Shown here: positions 4,038 to 31,635 of the stretch, in pieces
Layout of the letters: every line of letters begins with the position of its first letter
Numbering within the stretch: the first letter of the stretch is position 1
NCBI GenBank assembly: GCA_964368385.1
Contig: CAYJAG010000005.1
Location: 1-39,555 of the forward strand
From: an uncultured Muribaculaceae bacterium
GTDB lineage: Bacteria > Pseudomonadota > Alphaproteobacteria > Rs-D84
DNA: 39,555 bases
Direction of reading: 5' to 3'
The notes under the pieces: generated by a model
Told to the model about the DNA's origin: nothing
The model's input: only the letters and a program-made list of their open reading frames with translations
Databases searched by the model: none
Translations under genes and position numbers: made by a program

Positions 4038-4459
4038 ACGAAAAATATCCACGTGGGATTGAAGTTGTGGCCGGCATAATACCAATTAATGACGATGGTG
4101 ATGTTTTAATTTGCTCTTCACCTAAATGGGGTACATATGGTTTTCCCGGAGGACATATAGAGCCAGGTGAAAAAATGCATGCAGCCTGTATTCGTGAAGC
4201 AAAAGAAGAACTGGGTGTTGATGTTGAAATTATTCGTTTGCTTGCAGCGCAAGAATATTTTGTAGAACCTCCAGTATTCAAAAGAAATGCCCATTTTGTA
4301 TGTTTTGATTTTCTTGTGAAGATAAAGCATGGACAGGAATTAAAATTGGACGATAAGGAAATAACAGAATTTAAGTGGGTAAAACCCAAAGATGCGATGG
4401 GCATGGTTGGTGATGATTTTAGGCCACCGTTGAAGCATTTGTTAAATGAGTCAAAATGA
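4034..4459 (+). CDS. NUDIX hydrolase
   Basis: 141 aa. GGHIEPGEKMHAACIREAKEELGV is a Nudix box (GX5EX7REUXEEXGU). There are 4-nt overlaps with ruvA and mnmE. Confidence 0.8.
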   Translation: MNEKYPRGIEVVAGIIPINDDGDVLICSSPKWGTYGFPGGHIEPGEKMHAACIREAKEELGVDVEIIRLLAAQEYFVEPPVFKRNAHFVCFDFLVKIKHGQELKLDDKEITEFKWVKPKDAMGMVGDDFRPPLKHLLNESK

Positions 4460-6505: not shown

Positions 6506-7720
6506 ATGGCGTCGGAAAAATACATATCCATGAAGGAATCACTGACAGGATTTTCGTTCGCGAATCTTGGTTTGTTTTATGGCTTTGGTAATTCGGTTAT
6601 TGGGGCTGTTTATGCATTGGTTTTAATGGATATTTTCCACAACAGCTCTATCGTCGGTGTTTACATATCTTTGTCTTATGGTCTGGTCATTTTGTTGACA
6701 CTTACAACCAGTGAGTTTTTTCGCCGATTTACAAAAAGAAGAATATTTTATTCTTCAATGCTGGTGGCCGGGGGGTTTTCTTTTATGATGGCATTTTCGG
6801 TCAAGCCATTAACTTTTATTGTTCTGGACCAGGTTTCTTGGCTGCCATGGTTGCTTATCGGAGCATGTATTCCATTATTTTTATCCGATTTTTCCAAGGG
6901 GCCAGGGATGGCCAGACTAAGCAGTCGGTATTATACCTGGCTGAACATAGGCTCCGCGGTCGCGCCCATTATTGCCATGTTTGTTGCAGAAAGATATGGA
7001 AACAGGTCTGCGTATTTTGTAGCAAGCGCAATAATGTTTGCTGGATTATTATATTTCAGCAGTTACAGATTGGTATCAGAAGACAAGCCTATTAAAAAAT
7101 TGATACCGCGCAGAACTTTGCGCAGTATTTTAAATAACATTCGTTTATATTTTAAAAACGCAGGTTTACGTAAAGCATATTTGATAAATTGCGGTTATTA
7201 TGCTTTATCAATCATATCTAACATTTATATGCCAATCATAATTGTTGAAGAAAATGGGTTTTCTAAAGAAATCTTGGGATTTGTTTTGGCGGCATGCACC
7301 GTGCCATATATTCTGATGGCAACATTGATGCCAATAATTGCGAAAAAATTTGGTAATAAACTTTGTATATCTGCCGGATTCCTTATATTTGCAGTACTTG
7401 CCATAATGGGCTTTTTTGTAAAAGGTTATACATTGCTGATTATTTTTGTAGCGTGGAATTTTGCCGTTGCAATGATAGAGCCATTACGAGATCTGTTATT
7501 TTTTGATTCTGTAAATAAATCACAAGCATCGCGGTTTATCGGAATTTACAATACTGGTGATAATGTCCCCAGATTCATATTCCCGATGATATGTGCAGCC
7601 GTTATTGCATTGACCGGGGTAACCAGCGTTGTTCTGATAGTTTCGGCCGGTGTCGCAGTCTTGGCTGCTTTGGTAATGATGACACCAACCGAGCATGATA
7701 AAAATTCCGTACCAAAATAG
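6506..7720 (+). CDS. MFS-type transporter, substrate unknown
   Basis: 404 aa with about 12 hydrophobic segments in two halves and a basic loop in the middle (PIKKLIPRRTLRS). No substrate-specific motif recognised. Confidence 0.6.
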   Translation: MASEKYISMKESLTGFSFANLGLFYGFGNSVIGAVYALVLMDIFHNSSIVGVYISLSYGLVILLTLTTSEFFRRFTKRRIFYSSMLVAGGFSFMMAFSVKPLTFIVLDQVSWLPWLLIGACIPLFLSDFSKGPGMARLSSRYYTWLNIGSAVAPIIAMFVAERYGNRSAYFVASAIMFAGLLYFSSYRLVSEDKPIKKLIPRRTLRSILNNIRLYFKNAGLRKAYLINCGYYALSIISNIYMPIIIVEENGFSKEILGFVLAACTVPYILMATLMPIIAKKFGNKLCISAGFLIFAVLAIMGFFVKGYTLLIIFVAWNFAVAMIEPLRDLLFFDSVNKSQASRFIGIYNTGDNVPRFIFPMICAAVIALTGVTSVVLIVSAGVAVLAALVMMTPTEHDKNSVPK

Positions 7721-7778
7721 CTGTTGATAAAATTTGTTAAAATTGCTAGTCTGAAACCATGAAATAAAGGAGATTTTT

Positions 7779-8846
7779 ATGGCCAAAAAGGAAGTGGTAA
7801 AAGAGTCAGCAGTACCAACAAAAAATCCAGCATTGGAATCTGCGTTGGCGCAAATTCAAAAACAATTTGGTAAAGAAGCAATTATGAAAATGGGTGATGG
7901 GGCACAACAGAACATAGAGGCCATCTCAACCGGCAGTTTGGGTTTGGATATTGCGTTGGGGATTGGCGGTTATCCAAAGGGTCGCATAGTTGAAATTTAT
8001 GGACCAGAATCATCTGGAAAAACAACACTGGCATTGCACGCGGTGGCCGAGGCACAAAAGAAAGGTGGCACTTGCGCGTATATTGATGCGGAAAATGCAC
8101 TTGACCCGTCTTATGCCCGCAAATTAGGCGTAGATGTTACAAACTTGATTATTTCACAACCAGACTCTGGCGAGCAAGCGCTTGAAATTGCCGATACGCT
8201 TATTAAATCTGGCGCGGTAGATGTTGTTGTTATCGATTCTGTTGCTGCGTTGGTGACCAAGGCTGAACTGGAAGGAAACATGGGCGATAATTATGTTGGC
8301 ACAACCGCACGTTTGATGTCGCAATCGTTAAAAAAATTATCTGGCAGCGTTTCGCGCAGCAATACCTTGCTTATTTTCATCAATCAGATTCGTATGAAAA
8401 TTGGTGTTATGTTTGGCAGTCCTGAAACAACCAGTGGCGGAAATGCATTAAAGTTTTATGCCTCGGTCCGTCTGGACATTCGGCGCATTGGTCAGATAAA
8501 AGATAAAGAAGAAATTGTCGGGAACGAGACACGCGTAAAAGTCGTGAAAAATAAAGTTGCGCCACCATTCCGTGTTGTTGAATTCAAGATTATTTATGGT
8601 CAAGGAATCTCTCGCGTGTCGGAAATCCTGGACATGGGTGTTAAAATGAATCTGATTGAAAAAGCGGGTTCGTTCTATTCCTATAATTCTGAACGTATTG
8701 GTCAAGGCGAAGCAAACGCATGTCAATGGCTGAAAGACAATACTGGCGTTCAAAAAGAATTGTTGGATAAAATCATGGCAAAGTCCGCGGGCATTGCCGA
8801 AGAAATGACAACCGGTCCAGAAGCCGAGGACGACATTGCTGAATAG
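7779..8846 (+). CDS. recA: Recombinase RecA
   Basis: 355 aa. [21 protein letters not shown]..., Walker [13 protein letters not shown], ...IDAENALDP... and the L2 region [43 protein letters not shown] lies upstream. Confidence 0.95.
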
Positions 8847-8848
8847 TC

Positions 8849-9493
8849 ATGAAAATTAAAAATATATTCTGGGATGTAGATGGAGTTTTGGCAGATCTGA
8901 ACTTTGCGTATTTTAATTTCTTGAAAAACCATCCGAATTATCGGGAAATTTTCAAGGATTTAGAATACAAGGATTTGCCACAGGCTCTTCCTGTTTCGCC
9001 AAAATATGGCGCTGTGGAATTAAAGACTCATCCAACTCTGGGCAACCAGATGGATTATGATTTTTGCCATTCAGCGCAGTTTTTCAATAATCGCCCGCTG
9101 TACCCAGATGTAATTTCCACTTTGCAGGAATTAAACCGCCGCGGAATCAGACAGGTTACAGCCAGTGCGACTTTTGATGTGGCGACAAAAACAAAATTGT
9201 TAAAACGCTTATTTGCCGATGCGCCATTTTTGGATATAGAATGCGTGCAGCATGGCACTTTTATGTCTGACACGGCCAAGGAAGATTTATTAAAATTCTG
9301 CTGCGAAAAATATAAACTGGATCCGCGCGAATCAGTTTTGGCAGATGACAGAATTTATAATCTGCCAGCTGCCCTGAACATAGGTATGCAGGTCATCCGC
9401 ATGCGAAGCGAATTTACAACTGATGCACCGCCCCACTTGGCGCACATTCCTGAAATAAAAACAACATCAGAAATTTTGGAGTTTATAAAATGA
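8849..9493 (+). CDS. HAD-superfamily hydrolase (resembles the 5'(3')-deoxyribonucleotidase / NT5C-like branch)
   Basis: 214 aa. Motif I is FWDVDGVLAD and motif IV is LADDRIYN. The stop overlaps the kdsB start (ATGA). Confidence 0.6.
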   Translation: MKIKNIFWDVDGVLADLNFAYFNFLKNHPNYREIFKDLEYKDLPQALPVSPKYGAVELKTHPTLGNQMDYDFCHSAQFFNNRPLYPDVISTLQELNRRGIRQVTASATFDVATKTKLLKRLFADAPFLDIECVQHGTFMSDTAKEDLLKFCCEKYKLDPRESVLADDRIYNLPAALNIGMQVIRMRSEFTTDAPPHLAHIPEIKTTSEILEFIK

Positions 9494-10245
9494 AAACTTG
9501 CGTGATAATTCCCTGCCGCGCAGGGTCTGAAAGATTGGCAAAAAAACACCTGGCCGACATCAACGGAAAATCATTGATGCATCGCGTCTATGAAGTTGTC
9601 GCAACCCAGTTTAATCCGGCCGACATTTTTATTGCAGTTGATAACGAAGAATACTTTGACCATGCGCGCGGCTTTGGCGCGAACGCGGTAATGACCGATG
9701 TAAATTGTCCATCCGGTACAGACCGCATAGCCCAGGCTTTGGATACGATTGACCCACGTGGCGAAATTTATGACTTTGTTATAAATTTCCAAGGCGACGA
9801 TGTAAATGTGAATCCAAAAATAAGTCGGCATCTGGCAGAAATTTTGGAAAAAACTGGCGCAGATTTGGCGACCGCGGTTCAACCAATAGTGGATGAAAAT
9901 ATGATTATGAATCCATCAGTTGTAAAAACCGCAATGGTTCAATCAACTGGACGTTGTTTGTATTTTTCGCGCAGTCCAATTCCTTTCAATCGTGCGGTGG
10001 GATGCATCGACAAGGCTTTTTGGCATATCGGAATGTATGCATATAACTTGAAATCATTGCGTCGTTTTGTCGCGCTGCCGGTGGGTGAATTAGAACAAAC
10101 AGAAAAATTAGAACAGCTGAGATTCTTGGAAAACGGAATGAGCGTTTTTACCGCAATTCTTGATGATACGCGTCTGGATCCGCGCGCGCCAGCAGATGTG
10201 AATACAGCCCAGGACCTGGAAGAAATAAGGAAGTTTATAAAATGA
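9490..10245 (+). CDS. kdsB: 3-deoxy-manno-octulosonate cytidylyltransferase (CMP-KDO synthetase)
   Basis: 251 aa. VIIPCRAGSERLAKKHLADINGKSLMHRV and ...NFQGDD... are KdsB signatures. It is adjacent to kdsA. Confidence 0.85.
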   Translation: MKTCVIIPCRAGSERLAKKHLADINGKSLMHRVYEVVATQFNPADIFIAVDNEEYFDHARGFGANAVMTDVNCPSGTDRIAQALDTIDPRGEIYDFVINFQGDDVNVNPKISRHLAEILEKTGADLATAVQPIVDENMIMNPSVVKTAMVQSTGRCLYFSRSPIPFNRAVGCIDKAFWHIGMYAYNLKSLRRFVALPVGELEQTEKLEQLRFLENGMSVFTAILDDTRLDPRAPADVNTAQDLEEIRKFIK

Positions 10246-11078
10246 AACACATAAAAATTTCAGACAAAGTTATTTTTGGAAACGATTTGCCATTCGTTTT
10301 GATTGCAGGACCATGCGCCATGGAATCGCGTGACCACGCAATGTTTATGGCTGAAAACCTGATGAAAATTACCGACAAACTGGGAATACCTTTTGTATTC
10401 AAAACCAGTTTTGATAAAGCAAACCGGACATCATTGTCTTCAGGACGTGGAACCGGTCTAGATTATGCTATGAAAGTGTTTGATGAAATTCGTGAAAAAC
10501 TGGGGTGCGCTTGCATAACGGACATTCATCTGCCAAATCAGGCAGAAATTATTGCGCCGCATGTCGACATGCTGCAGATTCCGGCTTTTCTGGCGCGTCA
10601 AACAGATTTGCTGGTTGCGGCCGCAAAGACAGGAAAGCCTGTGAATGTCAAAAAACCACAATGGTCCGCGCCCCAGGATATGAAATCTACATTGGGAAAA
10701 ATGTATGATTCTGGAAATCAAAACATTTTGCTGTGTGAACGCGGCACCAGTTTTGGTTATAACAATTATGTTGTTGATATGCGCAGTATTCCATGGATGT
10801 CTGCATTGGACGCGCCAGTTGTAATTGATGCAACGCATGGAATTCAACAGCCGGCATCCAGTGGATGCACATCTGGTGGCGATCGCCGCCTTGCACCTGT
10901 TATCGCGCGCGCGGCATTGGCGATTGGTGTTGCGGCGGTATTTACCGAAGTGCATGATAATCCAGATTCTGCGCCATGCGATGGACCAAATATGATTAAA
11001 CTTTCCGATATGGAAAATCAATTATGTGTTTGGAAAGATATAGATAAAATTGCAAAAGCAAATCAGATAGTTATGTAA
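10242..11078 (+). CDS. kdsA: 2-dehydro-3-deoxyphosphooctonate aldolase (KDO-8-P synthase)
   Basis: 278 aa. FVLIAGPCAMESRDHA, FKTSFDKANRTS, QIPAFLARQTDLL, NVKKPQ, CERGTSFGYNN and DATH are all KdsA motifs. Confidence 0.92.
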   Translation: MKHIKISDKVIFGNDLPFVLIAGPCAMESRDHAMFMAENLMKITDKLGIPFVFKTSFDKANRTSLSSGRGTGLDYAMKVFDEIREKLGCACITDIHLPNQAEIIAPHVDMLQIPAFLARQTDLLVAAAKTGKPVNVKKPQWSAPQDMKSTLGKMYDSGNQNILLCERGTSFGYNNYVVDMRSIPWMSALDAPVVIDATHGIQQPASSGCTSGGDRRLAPVIARAALAIGVAAVFTEVHDNPDSAPCDGPNMIKLSDMENQLCVWKDIDKIAKANQIVM

Positions 11079-11105
11079 AAAAAAGCCGGCAAAGCCGGCT
11101 TTTTT
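11077..11105. terminator. Bidirectional rho-independent terminator between kdsA and typA
   Basis: A-run, stem AGCCGGC (11084-11090), loop AAA, stem GCCGGCT (11094-11100), T-run. It lies between convergent stops and overlaps the typA stop codon. Confidence 0.8.
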
Positions 11106-12933
11106 AATTCTTTCTTGTTTTCTTTCGTATGTTAGAATCAAGTTCCTTTTTACGAAGTCTGATGATTTGTGGAGTAACTTCTACCAATTCATCATCTTGG
11201 ATATAAGAAAGCGCTTCTTCCAGCGATATACGACGCGGTGGGGCCAGGAATAATTTTTCATCAGCCGTAACACTGCGCATGTTTGTCAGTTCTTTACCCT
11301 TGATCGGATTGATTTCTAAATCGTTTTCTTTGGTGTGTTCACCAACAATCATTCCGCTGTAAACCAGAGTCTGTGGTTCAATAAACAATGTTCCGCGCGG
11401 CTGTATGTTAAATAAGGCGTATGTTGCTGCCGCACCATTTTCCATAGAAACCAATACTCCTGGACGATACGCTTCTATATCGCCGCGATAAAAATCATAT
11501 TTATCAAATATACGATTCATAATTCCAGTGCCACGAGTATCGGTTCGAAATTCTGATAAATAACCAATCAATCCGCGCGAAGGTGCCGAAAAAGTTATAC
11601 GACTTTTACCAACGCCAGATGGTTTCATTTCTGTAATCATCCCTTTGCGCTTGGTCATTTTTTCAATAACAACGCCGGAAAATTCGTCATCAACATCAAT
11701 TACGACATCTTCGATTGGTTCCAGATCATTTCCATTTTCGTCTTTTTGGAAAACAACGCGTGGGCGGGATACAGAAAGCTCAAAACCCTCGCGGCGCATT
11801 GTTTCAATCAAAATTCCCAGTTGTAATTCCCCACGACCAGATACTTCAAAAGATTCATTATTAGCGCTTTGTACCACGCGCAACGCAATGTTTGTTTCCG
11901 CTTCTTTAAATAATCTTTCGCCAATCATACGGCTGGTTAATTTTTTACCACCGCTGCGTCCAGCCAATGGGCTGGTATTCACAAAAAATGTCATGGTCAG
12001 CGTTGGTGGATCTATTGGTAATGCATCAATAGGTTCGCTTACAGATGGATCACACAAAGTGTCCGCAACGGTCGCTTTGCCAAATCCGGCAATAACAACA
12101 ATATCCCCAGCACTGGCATTTTCAAGTGATATTTTTTCAACACCACGATGTTCAATGATTTTTGTTATTTTAGCATTTTCAATAAACGCGCCTTGCATAT
12201 TGATTGCCTTGACCGCTTGACCAACACGCACGGTTCCAGATTCTATTTTTCCAGTTAAAATTCTGCCTACATAAGGGTCTGCTTCCAGCGTCGTTGCAAG
12301 CATGCGGAAAGGAGCGTTCAGTTCGCATTTTCCAGATGCCCCGCAATCAGGCGCAGGCACATGATCAATGATAAGTTGAAACAATGGTGTTAAATCTTTG
12401 TGTTCATCAGTCATTTCACGCACTGCCCATCCGTCACGACCAACAGCATACAAATATGGGAAATCTAATTGTGCATCTGTCGCACCAAGTTTATCAAACA
12501 GGTCAAATGTTTCGCTGAGAACTTCGTCAGCGCGCGCATCCTGTCTATCAACTTTATTGATGCAAACAATAGGACGCAGCCCCAATTTTAATGCCTTGGA
12601 CAATACGAACTTTGTTTGTGGCAATGGTCCTTCGGACGAATCAACCAGCAATACCACACCATCAACCATACTTAAAATACGTTCAACTTCACCGCCAAAG
12701 TCAGCGTGCCCGGGCGTATCAACAATGTTGATTTTATAATCTTTCCACAGAACACTGGTTGGTTTTGCAGAAATAGTAATCCCGCGTTCGCGTTCCAAAT
12801 CACCGCTATCCATGATGCGATCTGCAACACGTTCGTTTTCACGGAAAGTGCCGGCCTGTTTCAGCATATTATCAACCAGGGTGGTTTTTCCGTGATCAAC
12901 GTGTGCGATTATTGCTATATTACGAATTTTCAT
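11104..12933 (-). CDS. typA: Translational GTPase TypA/BipA
   Basis: 609 aa. MKIRNIAIIAHVDHGKTTLVD..., DTPGHADFGGEVER, NKVDR, and the overall EF-G-like length and C-terminus are typical of BipA. Confidence 0.93.
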   Translation of the reverse strand: MKIRNIAIIAHVDHGKTTLVDNMLKQAGTFRENERVADRIMDSGDLERERGITISAKPTSVLWKDYKINIVDTPGHADFGGEVERILSMVDGVVLLVDSSEGPLPQTKFVLSKALKLGLRPIVCINKVDRQDARADEVLSETFDLFDKLGATDAQLDFPYLYAVGRDGWAVREMTDEHKDLTPLFQLIIDHVPAPDCGASGKCELNAPFRMLATTLEADPYVGRILTGKIESGTVRVGQAVKAINMQGAFIENAKITKIIEHRGVEKISLENASAGDIVVIAGFGKATVADTLCDPSVSEPIDALPIDPPTLTMTFFVNTSPLAGRSGGKKLTSRMIGERLFKEAETNIALRVVQSANNESFEVSGRGELQLGILIETMRREGFELSVSRPRVVFQKDENGNDLEPIEDVVIDVDDEFSGVVIEKMTKRKGMITEMKPSGVGKSRITFSAPSRGLIGYLSEFRTDTRGTGIMNRIFDKYDFYRGDIEAYRPGVLVSMENGAAATYALFNIQPRGTLFIEPQTLVYSGMIVGEHTKENDLEINPIKGKELTNMRSVTADEKLFLAPPRRISLEEALSYIQDDELVEVTPQIIRLRKKELDSNIRKKTRKN

Positions 12934-13056: not shown

Positions 13057-13464
13057 TTATCTTTTTTTAGAGTTGTTTTTAATAAAAGCTTTTAATTCAA
13101 TCAATGCGGCAGGGGTAAATGTTTCATATTGGTCCATAATGGCATTGATAAGGCGTTTTTGTGGTATAGCTTTTTGAGTTTCTTTTTGGATAAACATGTA
13201 TTTTCTTAGAACTAAACTCTTAAACTCTTTTATTGTAAGTGAAGCAACTTTGTTTTTAGCCCAAAAGTCGTTCATGTCTATTTCAGCGCCAATATAAACT
13301 TGGAAATGAGAGAAAAATAAAGTATCCCAAATTATCTGTAAATCTTTCATTTTTGTATTTTGATTTGCTAGTTTTGGTTTATACAATTCATTAACAGAAG
13401 AATCCAAAAGATAATTAATCGTTTCAAATACATGTTTCTGAATCAAAGAATCAATTTTTGCCAT
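13057..13464 (-). CDS. Hypothetical protein (AT-rich orphan, no family recognised)
   Basis: 135-aa ORF starting 2 nt after the serS stop. Predicted helical, Lys/Ile/Phe rich. Noticeably lower GC than its neighbours in my rough hand counts (about 30% versus about 40%). Confidence 0.5.
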   Translation of the reverse strand: MAKIDSLIQKHVFETINYLLDSSVNELYKPKLANQNTKMKDLQIIWDTLFFSHFQVYIGAEIDMNDFWAKNKVASLTIKEFKSLVLRKYMFIQKETQKAIPQKRLINAIMDQYETFTPAALIELKAFIKNNSKKR

Positions 13465-14759: not shown

Positions 14760-15053
14760 TTATAATTGTGAAATGAAATCAGGAAACCCGTTTTCTTCGT
14801 CGTCCATCTTATCGTCAGTTTCGGCCGCAATCGCGCTTTTATCGCGAGGATCGCGACTGGTGTCTATCTTGCATTGCTCATCATTTACAATACGGCCATA
14901 GTGCTCGGCCATCTGAAGGATACGTTCGCGTTCTACCGGGTCGGGTGTTTGGCGCGCCTGGTCCATATATTGCTTGCGTCTTTGCCGCCAGCGATGACAA
15001 CGCTGAATCATAAGTCCAACAGACATTTGTTTTTTATTAGTATTATTTTGCAT
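14760..15053 (-). CDS. Small basic/acidic protein, DUF4167-like
   Basis: 97 aa. ...RQRRKQYMDQARQTPDPVERERILQMAEHYGRIV... resembles the alphaproteobacterial DUF4167 core (..Y...A......D.V..E...QHAEHY.R). It has an acidic tail. Confidence 0.5.
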   Translation of the reverse strand: MQNNTNKKQMSVGLMIQRCHRWRQRRKQYMDQARQTPDPVERERILQMAEHYGRIVNDEQCKIDTSRDPRDKSAIAAETDDKMDDEENGFPDFISQL

Positions 15054-15141: not shown

Positions 15142-15175
15142 TTGCAATAATTTTTTTTTCTGGCTATTATAGCCA
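15142..15175 (+). promoter_or_regulatory. Putative sigma70-type promoter with a 15-bp perfect palindrome over the -10 element, upstream of the prepilin-like operon
   Basis: TTGCAA (15142-15147), 17-nt spacer, TATTAT (15165-15170). The palindrome TGGCTAT-T-ATAGCCA spans 15161-15175. GGAGGG lies at 15181-15186. Confidence 0.35.
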
Positions 15176-15193
15176 ATGTAGGAGGGATGTTTT

Positions 15194-16630
15194 TTGCAAA
15201 GCGATATGCGCGGAAATTTTTTGCTGCAAGCTTTGCTGGCAATCGCCTTGGTGATGTCATTTATGTCTTTTATGGCGCCAAAATTGTCCGCGCGAAAAAG
15301 TGATGCTGCCATGGCTGCAATCGCACGCCAGGCTGAAACCGCCGCCCGCGCTGCCCGTCAATTTGTCCGCGCGAACAAATCAAGCATTGTTTATGGTCCA
15401 CGCAACATTGCGGGTGATGAATTTTCCGATTTATTGGAGCCTTTCGGTTTGCCATTGGGTTTTGTCCCGTTGACCACGGCGCAACAAAAAATCTCTCTTT
15501 TGACATCAAAAAACGATTCTGGTGTTTTGGCCTTGATAGTTCTGCAGGATGGCAAAATTTCAGATATAAAGCGCCGCGAGTTAATGGCGCGAATCGGATC
15601 TGATGCAGCATCTGCTGATAATGATGGAGTTTTGCATGGAATTGGCGGCTGGGAAAAATCCCTTAAAGATTTTGGTATAAAACCAGATTCCGCGGCCGTT
15701 TATATTTTGGTTCCAGCAGATGATGATTTTTCAGAATTGATTCGACGCAGCGCAAATGATTCTGCCAGAAACAAGTTTCACATTGATCTTTCTATGGGAG
15801 GGATGTCTGTGAAAAACAGCACCTCGCTTTCCGCAAGGAATGCCGAGCTGGGCACCGCAAACTTTGGCACTTTATCCATAACCGGTTCCAGCGATGAAAG
15901 AAAATTTAAGAATAAGATAGAGCTGGTATCCGCCACGCGCGCAGTATTTCAGACGCGGGATGGGGCAAATGCATTGAACATTTCCAAGGGCGATCTGAAT
16001 GCAAAATCTTTGTCTGCGCAAACTCTTTTCAAATATGGAATTCCAGGCGCAGTTGATGCTGGGTCGACCTCGATTAATTCATTATCAATGGCGGTCGGTC
16101 GATCAGGATTTATCGGAATGTATGATTGGGACATTCACAGCGATGTAATTTTGAATAATGTTTCAATAGACACCGAACATCTTGAAATCAATGGTTTTAT
16201 AAATGCTTCGCGCGGTCAGGATGTGTTTATAGATAAAGATGAATTAACGTATTCAACAAAAAGTGGTGTCGAGACAAGAACGCTCAGCGCCGCATCTATT
16301 ACACTGCGCGACCAGGTTTCCAGCGCCTTGCTGTCGGGATCTGATGGCGCAGTGATTTTGGACATTAGGCCAGCTGGTGTTTCTGTCCTGACAGATGTTT
16401 TATCTGACACTATAAATAACGACGCATTTGAGATACTTAAAAATCCAGCCGCCGATGATGGTACTCTGATTGGTTGCAGAAATATAATTTCTTCGCTGTC
16501 ATCGGCCCCGACATATAATTCCAAATCGGCTGCGCAAAACATTGTGTGCCAGTTCGTTTTCTGGCAGCGTCTGGAGCGGCGCATAAATATAAAACAATGC
16601 ATGTTAGACGGAGGCAGTAATTGTGGGTGA
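15194..16630 (+). CDS. Large prepilin-like (class III signal) protein, paralog 1 of 3; short leader, Gln at +5, Cys-rich C-terminus
   Basis: 478 aa. TTG start at 15194, 7 nt after GGAGGG (alternative ATG at 15206). The N-terminus is MQSDMRG|NFLLQALLAIALVMSFMSF. It shares the internal motifs ..RRELMARIGSDA.. and DLSMGGMSVKN with the next two ORFs. The last ~55 aa contain 4 Cys. Confidence 0.6.
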   Translation: MQSDMRGNFLLQALLAIALVMSFMSFMAPKLSARKSDAAMAAIARQAETAARAARQFVRANKSSIVYGPRNIAGDEFSDLLEPFGLPLGFVPLTTAQQKISLLTSKNDSGVLALIVLQDGKISDIKRRELMARIGSDAASADNDGVLHGIGGWEKSLKDFGIKPDSAAVYILVPADDDFSELIRRSANDSARNKFHIDLSMGGMSVKNSTSLSARNAELGTANFGTLSITGSSDERKFKNKIELVSATRAVFQTRDGANALNISKGDLNAKSLSAQTLFKYGIPGAVDAGSTSINSLSMAVGRSGFIGMYDWDIHSDVILNNVSIDTEHLEINGFINASRGQDVFIDKDELTYSTKSGVETRTLSAASITLRDQVSSALLSGSDGAVILDIRPAGVSVLTDVLSDTINNDAFEILKNPAADDGTLIGCRNIISSLSSAPTYNSKSAAQNIVCQFVFWQRLERRINIKQCMLDGGSNCG

Positions 16631-16639
16631 TAAGTGTAA

Positions 16640-17941
16640 ATGATGAATGATAAATTAAAGGATTTTTACAAAAAATATATCCTGGGTGAAAAGACTTCAT
16701 CCCCTGTCGTTCATAATTCGTTACTCTGTCAGCGAGGTGCGGGATTATTGGAAACTTTACTGGCAATCGCTGTTGTCGGTGCCGTTCTGCCTTTTGCTTA
16801 TAATAGTGCGATAGAAATGAGTCACAACATCGCAGATACCACCGAAGCAAACCGAGTTTTGGCATGGCATGATCCAGTAATGGCCTATGTTCGCAAGAAT
16901 CAGTCGGATTGGCCATCGACCGCACAGATAGAATTTGATGAAGAGGAAGTTGTTGTTATGGGGACTGGCGACAATCGGCTGTTGTACCCATATGCTGGAT
17001 TTATTGAAAAGCGAGATGGTTCAGGTGGCTCGGTTATAAATGCCTATTTGGCGTTCCGTCCTGTTGGCATAACCGAAACACGCGTTGCAAACATTGCAAA
17101 GAATCTGGGTTCTGATGCTGCTGTTGCCAGCGCGGGTGGAAATGCTTCCAGTTCAGCCGGCTGGAGTATTTATTCCGAGCTGTTTACAGATGGCGATTTA
17201 ATTTTTAGAATTTCGGACATTTTGGGCGATGATGATGCATACAAGTACTTGCACAGAACTTATTTGGATGATGCAGAATTGAACACCATGCGTCGCGATC
17301 TGAATATGGCAAAACATAGCATTTTTGACATTGGAAAAATAACAGCTCAAACATTGAATGCAACAAATTCGAACCTTTGGTTTATTGAAACTCCACATAT
17401 TCAGACGTCCGAAATTTATTTTCCCGAAGGCGCGTCCATTGATGCGTCCAAAGCAATCTTTGGTTCGATTAACGTGAATGGGGATGTTAATGGACTGCGA
17501 AAAATCACAGCCGGAAAATTAAAAGGATCGGGCGTTCTTGCTGGTGCGCAGTGGTCTTCACGCGGAGATGTTGTTGCAGATTCAGTAAATGTAAATGGGC
17601 CGGTTAATGTCCAGCGAGATATGGTGGTTCGTGCAGAAACCGCGCGCAGTATAAGTGGCTTTGCGGGGGTGCGTGCGAACTCGGTTGCAACGCCGTATAT
17701 TTTTGCAGATCAGATGTTTTTTGCCAGTGGTTATGGAATAACAATTTCAAGTGAGTTGTTATATTCCACCAGCGGTGTGCCAATAAAACTGGGAAGTTGG
17801 GGCTTTCCATCATCAAGCAGTCCAAAATTTTCCACGCTGACATTGTATAAATCCAGTGGAAAGGAATTAGGTGAAGTGTTGGGTGTTCCAAACACAAAAG
17901 ATGTTGCCCAGATAATGAAAAGCGGATGGAAAAATCTGTGA
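16640..17941 (+). CDS. Large prepilin-like (class III signal) protein, paralog 2 of 3; 33-aa conserved leader
   Basis: 433 aa. ...LLCQRG|AGLLETLLAIAVVGAVLPF has Gly at -1, Glu at +5 and about 20 hydrophobic residues. Shared motifs are ..TRVANIAKNLGSDA.. and DLNMAKHSIFD. The C-terminal half has G/V/N/S-rich beta-type repeats (INVNGDVNG.., VNVNGPVNV..). Confidence 0.6.
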   Translation: MMNDKLKDFYKKYILGEKTSSPVVHNSLLCQRGAGLLETLLAIAVVGAVLPFAYNSAIEMSHNIADTTEANRVLAWHDPVMAYVRKNQSDWPSTAQIEFDEEEVVVMGTGDNRLLYPYAGFIEKRDGSGGSVINAYLAFRPVGITETRVANIAKNLGSDAAVASAGGNASSSAGWSIYSELFTDGDLIFRISDILGDDDAYKYLHRTYLDDAELNTMRRDLNMAKHSIFDIGKITAQTLNATNSNLWFIETPHIQTSEIYFPEGASIDASKAIFGSINVNGDVNGLRKITAGKLKGSGVLAGAQWSSRGDVVADSVNVNGPVNVQRDMVVRAETARSISGFAGVRANSVATPYIFADQMFFASGYGITISSELLYSTSGVPIKLGSWGFPSSSSPKFSTLTLYKSSGKELGEVLGVPNTKDVAQIMKSGWKNL

Positions 17942-19302
17942 ATGAAAAATTAAAGAATTTTTATAATAAATATATTATGGGTGAAAAAGTTTCATCAAAT
18001 TCCGATTGTCGTTCGCGTGGCGGAATGATGCTGGAAATACTTTTGTCTTTGGCTATTGCGTCGGCTGCACTACCTTTTGTTCTGCGGCAATTAGATGATC
18101 GCACACATCGCGCTGAAAATGTAAGCGTAGCGCGCGACATTGCGATGACTCGCGATGCATTGGAACGTTATATGGATGCGCGAAAACGCGAATTGTTGGC
18201 ACCGACCGGATCGGCCGTTACGCGCGTGCGAATGCGCGACCTGGTTGAATACGGAAACATTCCAAAAAATTATGACAAGTTCCAAGCCCGTATAATAAAA
18301 TCCAAGGATGCAAGCGGACGTGCAGTTTTATCCGGTATGGTTATATTTGATTCTGCGGATATATCGCCTGTGCGAACACGCGAAATTGCAGAGCTTGGGG
18401 GTGAGGGCTCAGGATTTGTAGAGCGAAACGAGGCATACAGCGCATTCGGAACGTGGCGTAGCAAGACAAGTATTTTTGATGCGCAATTTGGCAAGGACTC
18501 GGTAGTAGAAAGTACAGGTACAATTTTGTCTGGCGGTGATTTTCTTTGGAGATTGCCGTCAAATGAGCCGCTAGATGGATCAATGGCCAGCGATCTTTCT
18601 ATGGGTGGGTATGGCATAAATGATGCCCAGCAAATAGATTCGTATAGCGCAGATTTCACAGAAATTCTGCGTGCGAATTTAATTTCTGCACGAAAAGTAC
18701 AGATTACGCCGCGCGCAAATTTCGAATCTGCACTGAACGTATCGGGCGAAGCCATGGTAATGGGCGCAATGACATCTGATTCAAGAAATGCGCAGATAAG
18801 CTCGGAAATGTTTTTAAATGGCGAAGCGCGCTTGACTAGATTGGATACAGCTGAACTTTGGGTCGGCGATCTGAATCTGAACGGACTTTCTGTTGGCGGC
18901 AGCGAGAAGCCAGCAATTCTGAAAGTGGGGCAGACCATAGACATTACCCGTGGTCGTATAACGGCGCGCATAGCAACAGTTGGATATAGCGGATCGGTCG
19001 CCCCGAAAATTGTTGTGACCGAGCGCATGGAAGATCCAGATAATAGGGCATATTATTGGGACTTGAAATCAGGGGATGCCCAATTTTTCGATGTTTCTGC
19101 TGGACAGCTGAATCAAATGATGAAAAATGCAATTCGCGCCGAATCAAAAAGTCCAAAAACAACCACAGAAACAATAATCAGCCAAGTGGCCGCAAATAAT
19201 AATGCGACCGTATCCGATTATGCGCGTGCACTGGGCGAAATCCAAAGCAAGGTTATGATAAAATATAACCGCTTGAAATTAGACCAGGGCAGTGTAGAAT
19301 AA
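17926..19302 (+). CDS. Large prepilin-like (class III signal) protein, paralog 3 of 3; conserved long leader
   Basis: 458 aa. ...DCRSRG|GMMLEILLSLAIASAALPF has Glu at +5. Shared motifs are ..TREIAELGGEG.. and DLSMGGYGIND. The alternative GTG start at 17938 would give a GTGA overlap with the paralog-2 stop and align the two N-termini. Confidence 0.6.
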   Translation: MEKSVNEKLKNFYNKYIMGEKVSSNSDCRSRGGMMLEILLSLAIASAALPFVLRQLDDRTHRAENVSVARDIAMTRDALERYMDARKRELLAPTGSAVTRVRMRDLVEYGNIPKNYDKFQARIIKSKDASGRAVLSGMVIFDSADISPVRTREIAELGGEGSGFVERNEAYSAFGTWRSKTSIFDAQFGKDSVVESTGTILSGGDFLWRLPSNEPLDGSMASDLSMGGYGINDAQQIDSYSADFTEILRANLISARKVQITPRANFESALNVSGEAMVMGAMTSDSRNAQISSEMFLNGEARLTRLDTAELWVGDLNLNGLSVGGSEKPAILKVGQTIDITRGRITARIATVGYSGSVAPKIVVTERMEDPDNRAYYWDLKSGDAQFFDVSAGQLNQMMKNAIRAESKSPKTTTETIISQVAANNNATVSDYARALGEIQSKVMIKYNRLKLDQGSVE

Positions 19303-19307
19303 AATAT

Positions 19308-19784
19308 ATGAAAGTTACATGCCCGTTTTGTAAAGTTGAGTATTCTGTGCGCAACCAGAATTGCCGTTTATTTCAGTGCGCGGTGTGTGGTTGCACATGG
19401 CGCGCGCCGACGCGTGAAAAAAATTCGCGATTTTGGATTTTTATTTTGTCGTGCTTTGTTTTATTGTTGGCGGTCTTTTCACTTGTTGCTTTGCTGCTTT
19501 GGATTCCACACACAAACGAGGCATTGTCTGTCCGAATGAATTCGGCTGTTCGCGCGAATGAAATTTTGATTGTGTCTGGCGTTGTTTCTAACAAGTCGGA
19601 AAAATTATATGGCGTTCCAGATTTGATTGTGTCGCTGAAAGATAATCGAGGTATGGAAATTTCATCTGAAAAATTCGCGCCACCGGCGCCGTTGCTGGAC
19701 GCGGGGGAAGAGGCAAATTTTTCAGTCCAAGTTCATAATGTCCCGGAAGGGGTGGATAAAATCTCGGTGGAATTTAATAAATGA
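19308..19784 (+). CDS. MJ0042-type zinc-ribbon / TM / DUF3426 protein (ZitP-like)
   Basis: 158 aa. MKVTCPFCKVEYSV....FQCAVCGCTW has two CxxC pairs. One TM segment follows (FWIFILSCFVLLLAVFSLVALLLWI). The C-terminal ILIVSGVVSNKS..PDLIVSLKDNRG...LLDAGEEANFSVQV...VDKISVEF fits the DUF3426 pattern. Confidence 0.65.
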   Translation: MKVTCPFCKVEYSVRNQNCRLFQCAVCGCTWRAPTREKNSRFWIFILSCFVLLLAVFSLVALLLWIPHTNEALSVRMNSAVRANEILIVSGVVSNKSEKLYGVPDLIVSLKDNRGMEISSEKFAPPAPLLDAGEEANFSVQVHNVPEGVDKISVEFNK

Positions 19785-19804
19785 TAAAACATAGGAAAAG
19801 AACA

Positions 19805-20296
19805 ATGATTAAAATGCTTAAAAAACTCATTATTCATTATTCATCATTGGTTATCGCATTAGTTGTTTCTGTTGGCAGTGCGCACTCTGACGATGTTGTC
19901 TTGCAAAGACCAAGTATATTTTCCACCAGCACAGATTGGGAAAGTGTTACAGGTCTGCGCTATGGTCAGTTTGATTTGTCTTTTATCCGGGATAAATCAA
20001 TCGGGAATAACGGGATGGAATTATATTTTCTGGATGGCTTTCCATGTATAGGTCAGGCTCAAACCGCGCGCGCATGGATTTCACCCAGCAGAATTTCAGG
20101 CACAGATGAAAAGGCAAAAATGTATATCAGCTGTGTGCAACGTCCGACTGAATTACGTTTTGCCTGGCGCGAAGCCCAGCGTCAAGATTCTCAAAATCGG
20201 ACCACAGGAATCATAACTTGTCAGATAACAGGTCAAGGACGATTAATTTCTATTAAATTGAATGATTGCGTCAAAGGGAAAAACTGGGATGAATAA
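19805..20296 (+). CDS. Small secreted hypothetical protein
   Basis: ORF 19781..20296, with ATG 19805 preferred because AGGAAAAG lies 5 nt upstream. MIKMLKKLIIHYSSLVIALVVSVGSAHS|DD is a Sec signal. The mature part has 4 Cys. The stop overlaps the rluD start. Confidence 0.55.
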   Translation: MIKMLKKLIIHYSSLVIALVVSVGSAHSDDVVLQRPSIFSTSTDWESVTGLRYGQFDLSFIRDKSIGNNGMELYFLDGFPCIGQAQTARAWISPSRISGTDEKAKMYISCVQRPTELRFAWREAQRQDSQNRTTGIITCQITGQGRLISIKLNDCVKGKNWDE

Positions 20297-21251
20297 TACA
20301 AGAACATTTATTGCAAAAGAATCTGATGTTAGTTTGCGTCTGGATAAGTTTTTGGTATATCTTATGCCAGAATTTTCACGCAGCGAAATACAAAAATTTT
20401 CTGTTAAAAGATTGCCAGATACCGGCGAGATAAAATTTTCTGATAAAATAAAGCTGGGTGATGAAATCCAAGTGATTATTCCAGAAAAACAGCAAAAGCA
20501 ATTACCTGCTGTAAATAAAAAAAATCAATTTAAATTGGATGTTTTGTTCGAAGACGATGATGTTATTGTGGTGAATAAGCCGCGCGGCGTTGCGATGTAT
20601 CCAGGCGCGGGGCGTGAAACCGATACTTTGGTTCAACGTGTTTTGTCGCATACCAATCTGTCATCATCTGGCGGAGAAATGCGTCCAGGCGTTGTTCATC
20701 GTTTGGATAAAGATACCAGTGGAATTGTGATTTTTGCAAAGTCTGATGCGGCGCATAAATCATTGACCAAAACATTTGCCTGGCACGATTTAACCAGAAA
20801 GTATATTGCGTTTATCTGGGGTGTTCCAAATTGGACAACCGCCGACATCAGTGGAAATATAGGACGCAGCGCGCGCAATCGTCAAAAGATGACCATGTTA
20901 AAAATTGGTGGTAAACCAGCACAAACCCAGGCGGAAGTAATTGATGCATGGGCGGAAGAGGGGATTTCTAAACTGCGTTGCACTTTGCTGACTGGACGGA
21001 CTCATCAAATTCGCGTGCATCTTTCTGCACATGGCTTTCCGGTTATTTGCGACCCGCTTTATGGCCGCGGTACGACGCGACTGGGCAGTATAAAAAATCC
21101 AGAATTATTAGAATTTGTAAAAACGCATCATGGGCAAATGTTGCATGCCGAAGTTTTAGAATTAAAACATCCAATAACTGGTGAAATGCTGAAATTCAAA
21201 TCTAAATTGCCAGCTGACATGAAAGAATTGCAAGACATTTTAGAAAGCTGA
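20289..21251 (+). CDS. rluD: 23S rRNA pseudouridine synthase, RluA/RluD family
   Basis: ORF 20262..21251 trimmed to ATG 20289. It has an S4-like N-terminus (LRLDKFL), the catalytic HRLDKDTSG motif, and GRTHQIRVHL. Confidence 0.85.
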   Translation: MNNTRTFIAKESDVSLRLDKFLVYLMPEFSRSEIQKFSVKRLPDTGEIKFSDKIKLGDEIQVIIPEKQQKQLPAVNKKNQFKLDVLFEDDDVIVVNKPRGVAMYPGAGRETDTLVQRVLSHTNLSSSGGEMRPGVVHRLDKDTSGIVIFAKSDAAHKSLTKTFAWHDLTRKYIAFIWGVPNWTTADISGNIGRSARNRQKMTMLKIGGKPAQTQAEVIDAWAEEGISKLRCTLLTGRTHQIRVHLSAHGFPVICDPLYGRGTTRLGSIKNPELLEFVKTHHGQMLHAEVLELKHPITGEMLKFKSKLPADMKELQDILES

Positions 21252-28643: not shown

Positions 28644-29975
28644 TTATTCCTCTAGATACTCGCGCAGTTTATCACCGGAAATTGTCGGCGTTCTTGTTGC
28701 TTCGCCGGGCTCTACTATTGAAACGACGCGCGGGCTCATAAACACAACCAATTCCGCAAATGGATTTATTAATGTTTCAGGTTCGGTCACAAAGCTGTGT
28801 GTCGGAATTCCGATTATCACATAGTTGTCCCCCAAGCTGGTTGGAACATTAAAACTGGCCAATTCACCATCGCTGGTACGAAGTGTTATTTTGGCATCCA
28901 GTTTCATCATATCTGCATACTGACCATATTTTCCAGTTGCGCCAACAATAAGGTCCGTTTCTAATCTGTCTTCGCGTGAACATTGTCCGATATCAAACCG
29001 ACTTTGCCAGCCATTTGGTATCACAAATGTTCCCTGGGAAATTAAAACTACATTGGCTTGCTGTGATAAGAATGATTGCAATGTTTTTGTGTTTACCTCG
29101 GGCGACACTACCAGCAATCTGCCGACGACGCCAGGTATCGACATCTTTATATTATCATCCCCGAATGCAGGCAGCATGTTCATCCATACTATTGGATTAT
29201 CAGTCCGCGGATAAACGCGATACACATCCATGTCCCATGCCACCAGGAATTTTTTAGTGCCGACATCCGCAACGATTGCGCGAACTTCGCGTTCGGTCTG
29301 GTAATTTCCCTCGAATACCAGGGTTTTATCTTCCCAGTTAGTCAGCAGGTTGCGCAGCTCGGCCCCGCGCATCGCGTCAATCAATGCCATTATCATGTGT
29401 TGATCTTTTGGCATTTTCATCAACCATTTTCCGCGTGATGAAATCCGAATTTCTTTGGCATCGTCATCATAAGAATAATAAACTTTGCCCAATTTGCAGA
29501 TAAGTTCTACCGCGTCTTCCAATGTTCCAGATTTGATTTCTCCGCTGATTAGATCTGGCACGTTGTCCGATGCGACTACCTTTATCTTTGTGCCTTTCAA
29601 CAGGTTTTCCAAAACATCTGGGACATTCTTTTTCTTGAATGCAAAATCCTCGACGGCAAAATCAGGCAAGTTATCGCCTTTGTTTAATCGTACGATTTCC
29701 ACAGGCTGGGCCGGGATAACAGACATTATGTTTTGGTTGTCCCAATCAACCTTGCATCTTTTTGGAAGGTCTATGGCAAAACGACGCGCAGTGTCGGTTG
29801 TTAATCCAGCTTTGCGTGGGAATATGGGAACCGAGTACTCGTCCACAACCGTGTTTTCAACAATCTCTATCGTATCGTATTGTGTTTGATTTTGCTGTTG
29901 CATTTGTGTGCAACCAGCCAGCACAAGGCACAAGACAAAGGTCATAGATAATAAATTTTTCAATTTCATATTCAT
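28644..29975 (-). CDS. Lipoprotein with secretin-like architecture (N0-like domain, ring-building-like domain, secretin-like C-terminus); family assignment tentative
   Basis: ORF 28644..30005 trimmed to ATG 29975, which has AAGGAA 6 nt upstream. The signal and lipobox are MNMKLKNLLSMTFVLCLVLAGC. FAFKKKNVPDVLENLLKGTKIKVVASDNVPDLISGEIKSGTLEDAVELICKLGKVYYSYDDDAKEIRIS resembles a secretin N0 domain. The C-terminal ...LGDNYVIIGIP........FAELVVFMSPRVV resembles the secretin-domain end (dG.t.viGGl ... ELLIFITPRIV). Confidence 0.4.
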   Translation of the reverse strand: MNMKLKNLLSMTFVLCLVLAGCTQMQQQNQTQYDTIEIVENTVVDEYSVPIFPRKAGLTTDTARRFAIDLPKRCKVDWDNQNIMSVIPAQPVEIVRLNKGDNLPDFAVEDFAFKKKNVPDVLENLLKGTKIKVVASDNVPDLISGEIKSGTLEDAVELICKLGKVYYSYDDDAKEIRISSRGKWLMKMPKDQHMIMALIDAMRGAELRNLLTNWEDKTLVFEGNYQTEREVRAIVADVGTKKFLVAWDMDVYRVYPRTDNPIVWMNMLPAFGDDNIKMSIPGVVGRLLVVSPEVNTKTLQSFLSQQANVVLISQGTFVIPNGWQSRFDIGQCSREDRLETDLIVGATGKYGQYADMMKLDAKITLRTSDGELASFNVPTSLGDNYVIIGIPTHSFVTEPETLINPFAELVVFMSPRVVSIVEPGEATRTPTISGDKLREYLEE

Positions 29976-30024
29976 AGTTTGTTCCTTGTTTATGGGCAGC
30001 ACCATTAATAGGTTTTATGATATA

Positions 30025-30948: not shown

Positions 30949-31635
30949 ATGAAAAACAAATTCCTGTTTTGGCTGTCATTAGCCGTAGCGGTGTTGCTGG
31001 CGGTTTATCTTGGCGTGCGCATCAGCATGGTTCTGATGGGCGCGGGCGGATCGCTATCATCGATCAAGAAAATTTCTGTACATTCCAGCAATGGCCAGGT
31101 TGCGGGTCTTATTTCGCGCCTGGGGATTGAACCAGGCGTTCGGCATGTTGATTTGGATCAGGCTTTGACGCGCATTGCGGCCGATCCAGATGTGGCAAGT
31201 GCTGGCGTGCGCCGTATGCCCAATGGTGAAATAAAAGTCCGCGCAAAAATGAGGGTTGTTATCGCCAGTTGGACCGATGGACAAAATTATTATCCTTTGG
31301 ACGATACGGGCGCGCCGATAAATCGCCCATCGTCAGAACGGCCTGCAAACACTTTGATTTTTTCTGGTCAAGTCCCAGGCGACATTTCATCAGCCATAGC
31401 AGCGTTAAAGCAGACCCCTGGGCTGTTTTATCGCACAGACAGAATAGAGTTTGTAGAGGGCAGACGTTGGGACATTTTTTTGCTTAACGGGATTCGTATT
31501 ATGTTGCCCGAAGAAAATTTTGCCATCGCTGCTGAAAAAATAGAAAAGCTGAACAAGCAAAATATGATTTTAGACAGACAAATAACACTTTTGGATTTGC
31601 GTGATCCAGCGCGCGTGCTTGTAAAATTAAAATGA
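30949..31635 (+). CDS. ftsQ: Cell-division protein FtsQ
   Basis: 228 aa with an N-terminal TM segment (FLFWLSLAVAVLLAVYLGV). It has a POTRA-like segment and the ...RWDIFLLNGIRIMLPEEN... motif typical of FtsQ. It overlaps ftsA by 4 nt. Confidence 0.8.
   Translation: MKNKFLFWLSLAVAVLLAVYLGVRISMVLMGAGGSLSSIKKISVHSSNGQVAGLISRLGIEPGVRHVDLDQALTRIAADPDVASAGVRRMPNGEIKVRAKMRVVIASWTDGQNYYPLDDTGAPINRPSSERPANTLIFSGQVPGDISSAIAALKQTPGLFYRTDRIEFVEGRRWDIFLLNGIRIMLPEENFAIAAEKIEKLNKQNMILDRQITLLDLRDPARVLVKLK

Follow-up and report, generated by a model that had tools for sequence, protein, structure and literature searches.

Chromosomal PilV-like minor pilins in triplicate, with a ZitP-like partner, in an uncultured Rs-D84 alphaproteobacterium

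Introduction

Why would a chromosome carry three adjacent genes for large prepilin-like proteins with no pilus machinery beside them? The question is raised by contig CAYJAG010000005.1 of an uncultured bacterium of the alphaproteobacterial Rs-D84 lineage, of which a stretch of 39,555 nucleotides was analysed (the window, 39.5 kb). A first, sequence-only reading of the window had described three consecutive 'giant' prepilin-like proteins (here P1, P2 and P3), followed by a ZitP-like and a secreted protein, and considered the module impossible to assign to the type II secretion system (T2SS), type IVa pili (T4aP), type IVb pili (T4bP) or Tad pili. We show here that P1, P2 and P3 are almost certainly members of the PilV superfamily, a family that this reading had not considered, and that their size is normal for PilV (approximately 430-475 amino acids, aa). 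Their assembly by a type IVb machine encoded in the same genome is, in our view, a likely explanation of the module.

In plasmid systems the minor pilin PilV is held in the fibre by its conserved N-terminal part, while the C-terminal domain binds target-cell structures and is swapped by a shufflon (PMC9045228). The Rs-D84 order, which includes the sister clade Candidatus Enterousia, has genomes smaller than 1 Mbp, and a dependence on partner cells has been proposed for it; the comparative paper reports type IV pili for another lineage only (PMC12306168). The five genes considered here are the following.

15194-16630, + strand: P1, predicted PilV-like minor pilin, 478 aa
16640-17941, + strand: P2, predicted PilV-like minor pilin, 433 aa
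17926-19302, + strand: P3, predicted PilV-like minor pilin, 458 aa
19308-19784, + strand: ZitP-like bitopic protein, 158 aa, starting 5 nt past P3
19781-20296, + strand: Cys-rich signal-peptide protein, 171 aa, overlapping rluD

Results

Prepilin signals and paralogy

Every stop-to-stop open reading frame (ORF) with a length of 60 aa or more was scanned for prepilin motifs across the window. The only ORFs with G-x4-(E/Q) followed by at least 13 hydrophobic residues near the N-terminus were the three consecutive plus-strand ORFs of 478, 433 and 458 aa, as first reported, and this uniqueness excludes a chance occurrence. Their N-termini are MRG/NFLLQALLAIALV in P1, QRG/AGLLETLLAIAVV in P2 and SRG/GMMLEILLSLAIA in P3 (a slash marks the predicted cleavage site). 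In P1 a short leader (MQSDMRG) precedes NFLLQ, and position +5 is occupied by Gln, the residue that plasmid PilV has there; the P2 leader is 33 aa long, and its +5 residue is an invariant Glu; P3 has a leader of approximately 32 aa and Glu at +5. In the ortholog families of P2 and P3, Gly(-1) and Glu(+5) vary little or not at all, and the P1 orthologs share an almost invariant G/NFLLQALLAL...PF, again with Gln at +5. A class III (prepilin) signal, that is a Gly-ended charged leader followed by an alpha1-N segment of approximately 20 hydrophobic residues, was present in all three proteins and conserved in their families.

BLASTP and hhalign comparisons confirmed that the three predicted proteins are paralogs, as the sequence-only reading had held. 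P2 and P3 are the closest pair (BLASTP E = 1e-17; hhalign 98.8%, E = 6.7e-17, 261 columns), followed by P1 and P3 (BLASTP E = 1e-8; hhalign 98.6%, E = 1.1e-15, 247 columns) and by P1 and P2 (BLASTP E = 4e-4; hhalign 98.6%, E = 1e-15, 207 columns). The profile alignments were confined to the N-terminal part, DLxMG motif included, and in them the C-terminal halves of P1, P2 and P3 had no detectable similarity to each other. The hydrophobic N-terminus was the most conserved segment of each family (mean pairwise identity of 0.64-0.69), and the C-terminal halves were approximately as conserved as the N-terminal modules (0.43-0.62). The conserved C-terminal half of P1 includes four invariant Cys (428, 452, 469 and 477); P3 ends in a helical region with a conserved NNNATxSDY motif. 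The C-terminal halves had been called beta-repeat-like: they are indeed Ser/Gly-rich, and the beta strands found little support, being predicted at low confidence.

Assignment to the PilV family

The P1, P2 and P3 family profiles were compared by hhalign with a reference set of 22 genuine PilV/Shufflon_N proteins. All three aligned with PilV over their N-terminal modules (P1: 99.7%, E = 2.9e-25, 218 columns; P3: 99.4%, E = 1.9e-21, 223 columns; P2: 99.3%, E = 2.7e-20, 222 columns), in register from the prepilin motif through the DM..N.I.N motif, and each was nearer to PilV than to its own paralogs. An annotated, genuine PilV of 464 aa, encoded on a conjugative plasmid of Pantoea that carries a full type IVb operon, was also searched against the family hidden Markov models (HMMs). 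It matched the whole N-terminal module of P1 (42.4 bits), P3 (41.0 bits) and P2 (15.3 bits), and its N-terminus (HRG/NMLLQ) resembles that of P1 (MRG/NFLLQ).

Homologs of P1 numbered 682. An exhaustive HMMER search with the P1-family profile returned only 238 proteins at E<=1e-3 among 1.84 billion representatives; approximately 50 were full-length orthologs and the rest covered profile positions 3-225 (approximately) only. PF04917 (Shufflon_N) was matched by 39 of 70 such distant relatives (best E = 2.7e-109) and N_methyl by 10 of these 70, and many distant relatives had textbook prepilin N-termini. When P1 was searched by tblastn against 7.3 Gb of plasmids, every match listed (all weak) was an annotated pilV gene. 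A type IV pilin of solved structure (9egp_A) was matched in its alpha1 helix by the P3 family profile (E = 5.9e-4), with G-1/E+5 in register. Two P1 orthologs are labelled 'PilV' by NCBI, a label that the current NCBIfam models did not reproduce and that the other evidence given here bears out. In the AlphaFold2 (AF2) models of P1 and P3 an N-terminal helix of 52-53 residues is followed by an alpha/beta domain at a predicted local distance difference test score (pLDDT) of 70-90; in P1 the helix spans residues 9-60 and the alpha/beta domain is at pLDDT 72-90.

Other pilin families gave nothing comparable. No TadE-like domain (PF07811) was matched in P1, P2 or P3 by Pfam at E<=1, and the minor pseudopilin models of T2SS and T4aP (N_methyl, T2SSK, PilX, PilW) were not matched in Pfam or NCBIfam, the sole match being a non-significant one to the HpsB N-terminus (E = 0.07). 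Pfam, NCBIfam and PHROGs scans of the five block proteins returned nothing usable; the P1 and P2 profiles had no significant match among PDB sequences, and a tailspike/beta-helix hint in the structure searches was not significant (E = 1.6 and 0.2). We class the predicted P1, P2 and P3, at the level of a divergent subfamily, as PilV-family (PF04917) type IVb minor pilins. What the three share is the class III signal with Gly(-1), an alpha1 helix of approximately 50 residues and a PilV constant region of approximately 220 residues, and in each the constant region is followed by a different, evolutionarily conserved C-terminal half.

The likeness to PilV of the IncI1/IncI2 plasmids R64 and TP114, of PAPI-1 and of the Salmonella Typhi pil operon lies in the prepilin N-terminus (with the G/N-x-L-L-Q pattern in P1), in the constant region with its (Y)L(Y/H)R...N.M...(D/L)M..N.I.N motif, and in a modular build of approximately 430-480 aa with a constant N-terminal part and a separate C-terminal domain (PMC9045228). 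The differences concern number and setting. PilV is encoded by a single gene with shufflon-switched C-termini, on an enterobacterial plasmid and at the end of a pil operon beside pilS (major pilin) and pilU (prepilin peptidase), whereas here three chromosomal paralogs with fixed, mutually unrelated C-terminal halves stand outside any pil operon, among housekeeping neighbours, in an alphaproteobacterium with a reduced genome. Shufflon switching defines the shufflon-type pilV genes and not the whole PilV protein family. At the trio itself a shufflon was rejected, both the inverted-repeat system and the recombinase being missing: there were no sfx repeats at the block beyond weak AT-rich matches, and no Rci or other recombinase within 17 kb.

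CofB of the CFA/III pilus of enterotoxigenic Escherichia coli and TcpB of the toxin-coregulated pilus of V. cholerae are likewise large minor pilins (more than 400 aa) with a pilin domain and extra C-terminal domains. TcpB initiates pilus assembly, and both proteins act at the tip and prime assembly (PMC5207764); this is the mechanistic model adopted here for the trio. CofB forms a homotrimer, as cited in PMC9045228 (reference 25). No sequence or fold match between CofB or TcpB and P1, P2 or P3 was detected; moreover, CofB and TcpB are products of single genes that form homotrimers, whereas the trio suggests a heteromeric tip. In T2SS (GspK-GspI-GspJ) and T4aP (PilX/PilW/PilV/FimU), several minor (pseudo)pilins act together, and one that lacks Glu5 caps the filament. 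These tip complexes resemble the trio in their working only, with no homology, and their proteins are smaller and, unlike the trio, not mutual paralogs over approximately 220 residues.

Two further observations concern the PilV-like module. At P1 residues 147-170 (approximately) the window clade carries a segment of approximately 22 residues, GVLHGIGGWEKSLKDFGIKPDSAA, that is missing from P1 of the Enterousia clade. This segment aligns with GGWQ..L..FGL of genuine PilV, and the difference looks like a deletion in the Enterousia clade, not an insertion in the window. Some distant relatives with a PilV-like N-terminal module (P0254, P0284, P0289, P0292 and P0322) reach 930-1618 aa, and the long ones bear phage tail-collar, tail-fibre or Cys-rich C-terminal regions; these varied C-termini indicate that the family joins one pilin module to many receptor-binding modules.

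The conserved block and the accessory proteins

The genes P1, P2, P3, Zn-ribbon, signal-peptide and rluD are spaced by 9, -16, 5, -4 and -35 nt, gaps and overlaps that fit a single translationally coupled operon. The positions of the zinc-ribbon/DUF3426 gene (5 nt past P3) and of the signal-peptide gene (overlapping rluD) were those first described. A promoter-like site at 15142-15170 scored no better than chance. Two flanking genes accompany the block.

14760-15053, - strand: small divergent DUF4167-like ORF, 97 aa (Pfam DUF4167 at E = 3.8e-4, under the cutoff)
20262-21251, + strand: rluD, pseudouridine synthase (PseudoU_synth_2 was called at this place in related loci)

The start of rluD overlaps the signal-peptide gene by 35 nt and the gene is always downstream of the block; it is a housekeeping gene that ends the operon and is not counted in the pilus function.

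A synteny survey, which the sequence-only reading had recommended, showed that the order DUF4167-like ORF, P1, P2, P3, Zn-ribbon protein, signal-peptide protein and rluD recurs unchanged in 21 or more related loci, even where identity falls to 37%, while the outer flanks differ between them. Homologs came only from uncultured gut or termite Alphaproteobacteria, Candidatus Enterousia included. The guanine-cytosine (GC) content of the block is uniform and equal to that of its surroundings, in line with the core-genome origin originally proposed; the block is a native, old and strongly conserved core-genome unit of a specific lineage. A mobile-element origin was rejected on the core-genome context, the native GC and the synteny. 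The DUF4167-like ORF is better conserved than the pilin-like genes and divergently adjoins the trio in every related locus, its ortholog being found at the same position in all loci (phmmer E of about 1e-32 to 1e-46). Three public metagenome-assembled genome (MAG) records titled 'uncultured Muribaculaceae bacterium' (L007, L008 and L012) carry the block at 62-89% identity; these bins appear to be mislabelled, the gene block being alphaproteobacterial.

The 158-aa protein consists of a cytoplasmic four-Cys zinc ribbon (C5, C8, C24 and C27, all invariant), one transmembrane segment and a periplasmic DUF3426-like domain. The window copy by itself remained under the Pfam cutoffs; among 15 orthologs, Zn_ribbon_4 was matched by 11 and DUF3426 by 10. 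The first description of this protein as ZitP-like therefore holds at the level of domain architecture. The Zn-ribbon profile matched PDB 2nb9 (E = 0.0037), presumably the zinc finger of ZitP; the paper gave no confirmation of this identity, and the match was not used. ZitP of Caulobacter and Rickettsia has the same architecture of zinc ribbon, transmembrane segment and DUF3426 domain, but it is longer (245 aa, against 158 aa here with almost no linker) and the pili on which it acts are of the Tad (type IVc) kind, in contrast to the type IVb-like partners of the 158-aa protein. The DUF3426 domain of ZitP is needed for the formation of polar pili (PMC5182065). The 171-aa protein, present in all loci, carries a signal peptide; four Cys and the core FSTSTDW..TGL..LDGFPC are invariant among its orthologs. 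The protein had no match in Pfam, NCBIfam, PHROGs or PDB and is probably a periplasmic or secreted partner.

Pilus machinery in related genomes

R64-type machinery was found in Enterousia-type relatives, to which all the evidence in this section refers. On one Enterousia contig (L018) the trio block lies 6 kb from a PilQ-type ATPase gene, in a same-strand cluster that encodes PilO (PF06864, 32 bits, cutoff 26.7), a 233-aa signal-peptide/coiled-coil protein in the position of PilP, and the T2SSE ATPase (E = 1.3e-53). The genes follow one another as pilO-pilP-pilQ do in R64. A metagenome scan with the L018 ATPase gave 147 relatives, of which 80 loci were kept at 75-91% identity. The genes were present in these loci as follows.

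ATPase: 80 of 80 metagenome loci
233-aa protein: 75 of 80 metagenome loci
T2SSF platform: 70 of 80 metagenome loci
PilO: 69 of 80 metagenome loci
P1-P2-P3 trio: 0 of 80 metagenome loci

On a 935-kb contig (L041) the machinery cluster (7435-12662) adjoins lpxK and lpxC; it opens with a 138-aa lipoprotein that has no family assignment and continues with PilO (48 bits), a 236-aa protein, T2SSE (5.3e-61) and T2SSF (3.6e-25). A PilN-type secretin C-terminus was found on 1 machinery contig only (E = 1e-20). 'TadA', the NCBI name of the ATPase of this lineage, is a generic T2SSE-family name. As judged from these gene clusters, relatives of the window's organism retain an R64-type type IVb machine among housekeeping genes. 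The sequence-only reading had regarded a described family within a genome carrying the matching pilus locus as the outcome that would speak against it: that outcome was essentially reached, the described family being found for all three proteins and the matching locus in related genomes.

In 8 loci of the Enterousia clade, a gene for a small prepilin of 152 aa (MKTESG/RSLIEVIG...) lies at a distance of 2 kb from the trio. This prepilin has G-1/E+5 and a C-terminal Cys pair, and matched PilS_N (PF08805) under the cutoff (E = 0.0038); neither the window nor the flanks of the window's clade yielded a counterpart.

Two observations on the machinery loci are added. The pilus ATPase is 75-91% identical over the 80 loci (L026-L105), while the pilin-like proteins are only 37-45% identical. 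On L041 a serine recombinase gene (3744-4346) lies approximately 3.5 kb upstream of the machinery cluster.

Discussion

Proposed function of the trio

In the explanation that we consider likely, a prepilin peptidase would cut P1, P2 and P3 after the conserved Gly, and a type IVb machine (PilN secretin, PilO, the PilP-position protein, a PilQ-type ATPase and a PilR-type platform) would assemble them, its genes presumably lying elsewhere in the chromosome, as in the sister genomes. The trio would probably act together as a heteromeric tip or priming complex of the pilus, as is the case for known type IVb minor pilins. P1, PilV-like and with Gln at +5, would be the capping subunit, and P2 and P3, with Glu at +5, would dock below it onto the major pilin. 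One tip could then show three fixed binding modules, instead of the single module that is varied by DNA shuffling in plasmids. For a gut bacterium whose genome is reduced and partner-dependent, a likely use would be attachment to conserved ligands on partner cells or host surfaces. The ZitP-like membrane protein probably helps to place or assemble the envelope-spanning parts of the machine, and the Cys-rich exported protein would probably be a partner in the periplasm or at the tip. The most detailed form of this proposal is a good deal more tentative than assembly by a type IVb machine, and we put it forward as a possibility that may well not hold. It combines a type IVb pilus that is encoded in the chromosome and tipped by a heterotrimer of the three paralogs, three fixed receptor-binding modules as an alternative to a shufflon, a partner-attachment organ, positioning by the ZitP-like protein and a tip-bound co-adhesin or effector.

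Several results weigh against assembly of the trio by a type IVb machine and against the tip role. No ATPase, platform, prepilin peptidase, secretin or major pilin was found in the 39.5-kb window by a Pfam scan of ORFs of at least 150 aa, by phmmer with reference Pil proteins or by motif scans, in agreement with what had been reported at first for the ATPase, platform and peptidase, and the approximately 8 kb past the left window end held only housekeeping genes. No machinery locus could be tied to the window's clade, the flanks being unshared and GC ranging from 32 to 54% within clades. The trio was less than 10 kb from an ATPase operon in only 1 of approximately 100 loci; the functional link accordingly follows from family logic and not from linkage. 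Neither phmmer nor a scan for the GxGD(V/I)K motif detected a prepilin peptidase in approximately 1.5 Mb around both clusters (+/-10 kb per locus). The Pfam models Shufflon_N and N_methyl themselves gave no match to P1, P2 or P3 at E<=1. Structure and profile checks had been suggested together by the sequence-only reading: the profile searches led to the PilV family, and Foldseek returned no match at E<=0.001 in PDB or BFVD for AF2 models that are of low confidence beyond the N-terminal domain (pLDDT 51 and 66). With such models and empty fold searches, the functions of the C-terminal halves are assigned by analogy alone, and we infer the tip-complex and adhesion roles on that footing.

Other explanations of the trio

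The best of the other explanations, which we nevertheless hold to be unlikely, turns the same machine to secretion: the trio would tip a short periplasmic pseudopilus that exports the Cys-rich protein or other substrates, on the model of type IVb export of TcpF or CofJ aided by a minor pilin. It would account for a conserved, exported four-Cys protein whose translation is coupled to that of the trio at all loci, for conserved, non-diversifying C-terminal halves, which fit the binding of a fixed partner, and for a secretin in just 1 of 80 machinery loci. However, the exported protein has no homology to TcpF, CofJ or any known family, and the small major-pilin-like pilin of the sister clade suggests a real fibre. 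PilV-family proteins are, moreover, documented adhesins (PMC9045228).

Exaptation would dispense with the pilus machine altogether. P1, P2 and P3 would stay uncleaved in the inner membrane, held there by their signal anchors, and would join the ZitP-like protein in a complex of the envelope, a view in keeping with the peptidase missing around both clusters, with a block that is never inside a pil operon and with Gln instead of Glu at +5 of P1. Yet genuine PilV likewise has Gln at +5, and the near-invariance of Gly(-1)/Glu(+5) in P2 and P3 across relatives of approximately 40% identity is hard to explain for a plain anchor. In addition, the highly conserved type IVb machinery of the lineage (75-91% identity) needs pilins, and the peptidase search reached only approximately +/-10 kb around two loci per genome. 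Exaptation has, in our judgement, a small chance of being correct.

Very improbable is a conjugative origin, in which the trio would be the leftover of an integrated IncI-like element whose pilus served mating-pair stabilisation as in R64 and TP114. The closest characterised relatives do reside on conjugative plasmids and islands, but the block sits in a core-genome setting of native GC, strictly syntenic with serS, rluD and dnaX across genera; there are no tra or type IV secretion system (T4SS) genes, relaxase, shufflon repeats or Rci nearby, and the machinery cluster itself lies among lpxK and lpxC. We give least credence, next to none, to an undescribed filament or surface-display system outside T2SS, T4aP, T4bP and Tad: curated Pfam/NCBIfam models miss P1, P2 and P3, there are no structural matches, and three paralogs with a ZitP-like partner are not described in the literature searched, but profile-profile and HMM evidence puts all three in the PilV family, the lineage encodes R64-type PilO, ATPase, platform and secretin, and the PilV hhalign results largely refute this idea.

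Significance

The PilV family itself is known, and the trio module is not an unclassifiable system. What is new is a set of chromosomal, triplicated and shufflon-free PilV-like minor pilins with a ZitP-like partner, in a lineage that has its type IVb genes dispersed among housekeeping genes. The PilV family is thereby extended from conjugative plasmids to a core chromosomal role, and three fixed paralogs offer a natural comparison with shufflon switching. For approximately 240 representative clusters labelled 'hypothetical', assignment to a divergent Shufflon_N subfamily becomes possible. Alphaproteobacteria of the Rs-D84 type occur widely in the guts of animals and termites, and the block and the machinery are concrete candidates for their attachment apparatus; if the heterotrimeric tip were real, the pilus would be the organ by which Rs-D84 and its relatives, with their reduced genomes and metabolic dependence, attach to the partner cells on which they live.

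Further features of the window

Two sequence features were located within the block.

15180-15186, + strand: Shine-Dalgarno sequence AGGAGGG, 7 nt upstream of the P1 TTG start (15194)
16644-16701 (P2 leader) and 17939-17996 (P3 leader), + strand: 58-nt direct repeat, copies 84% identical

The two leader copies have this identity although the P2 and P3 proteins are only 28% identical overall, and P0034, a close P2 relative (88% identity), is without the long leader. This suggests a recent gene conversion or a common translation-initiation element.

The other sizeable ORFs of the window are housekeeping genes (mltA, yebC, ruvA, mnmE, recA, kdsB, kdsA, typA, serS, rsmI, engB, lolCD-like genes, ftsQ, ftsA, xerC/D, lptG and greA). 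Three ORFs matched no Pfam family: 33520-36261 (913 aa), 28644-30005 (453 aa), which adjoins the lolC/lolD-like transporter genes, and 13057-13464 (135 aa). A 591-aa ORF at 31632-33407 encodes both an FtsA domain (residues 188-322) and, further on, a ribulose-phosphate 3-epimerase domain (residues 380-572) and is either a gene fusion or a frameshift or assembly artefact.

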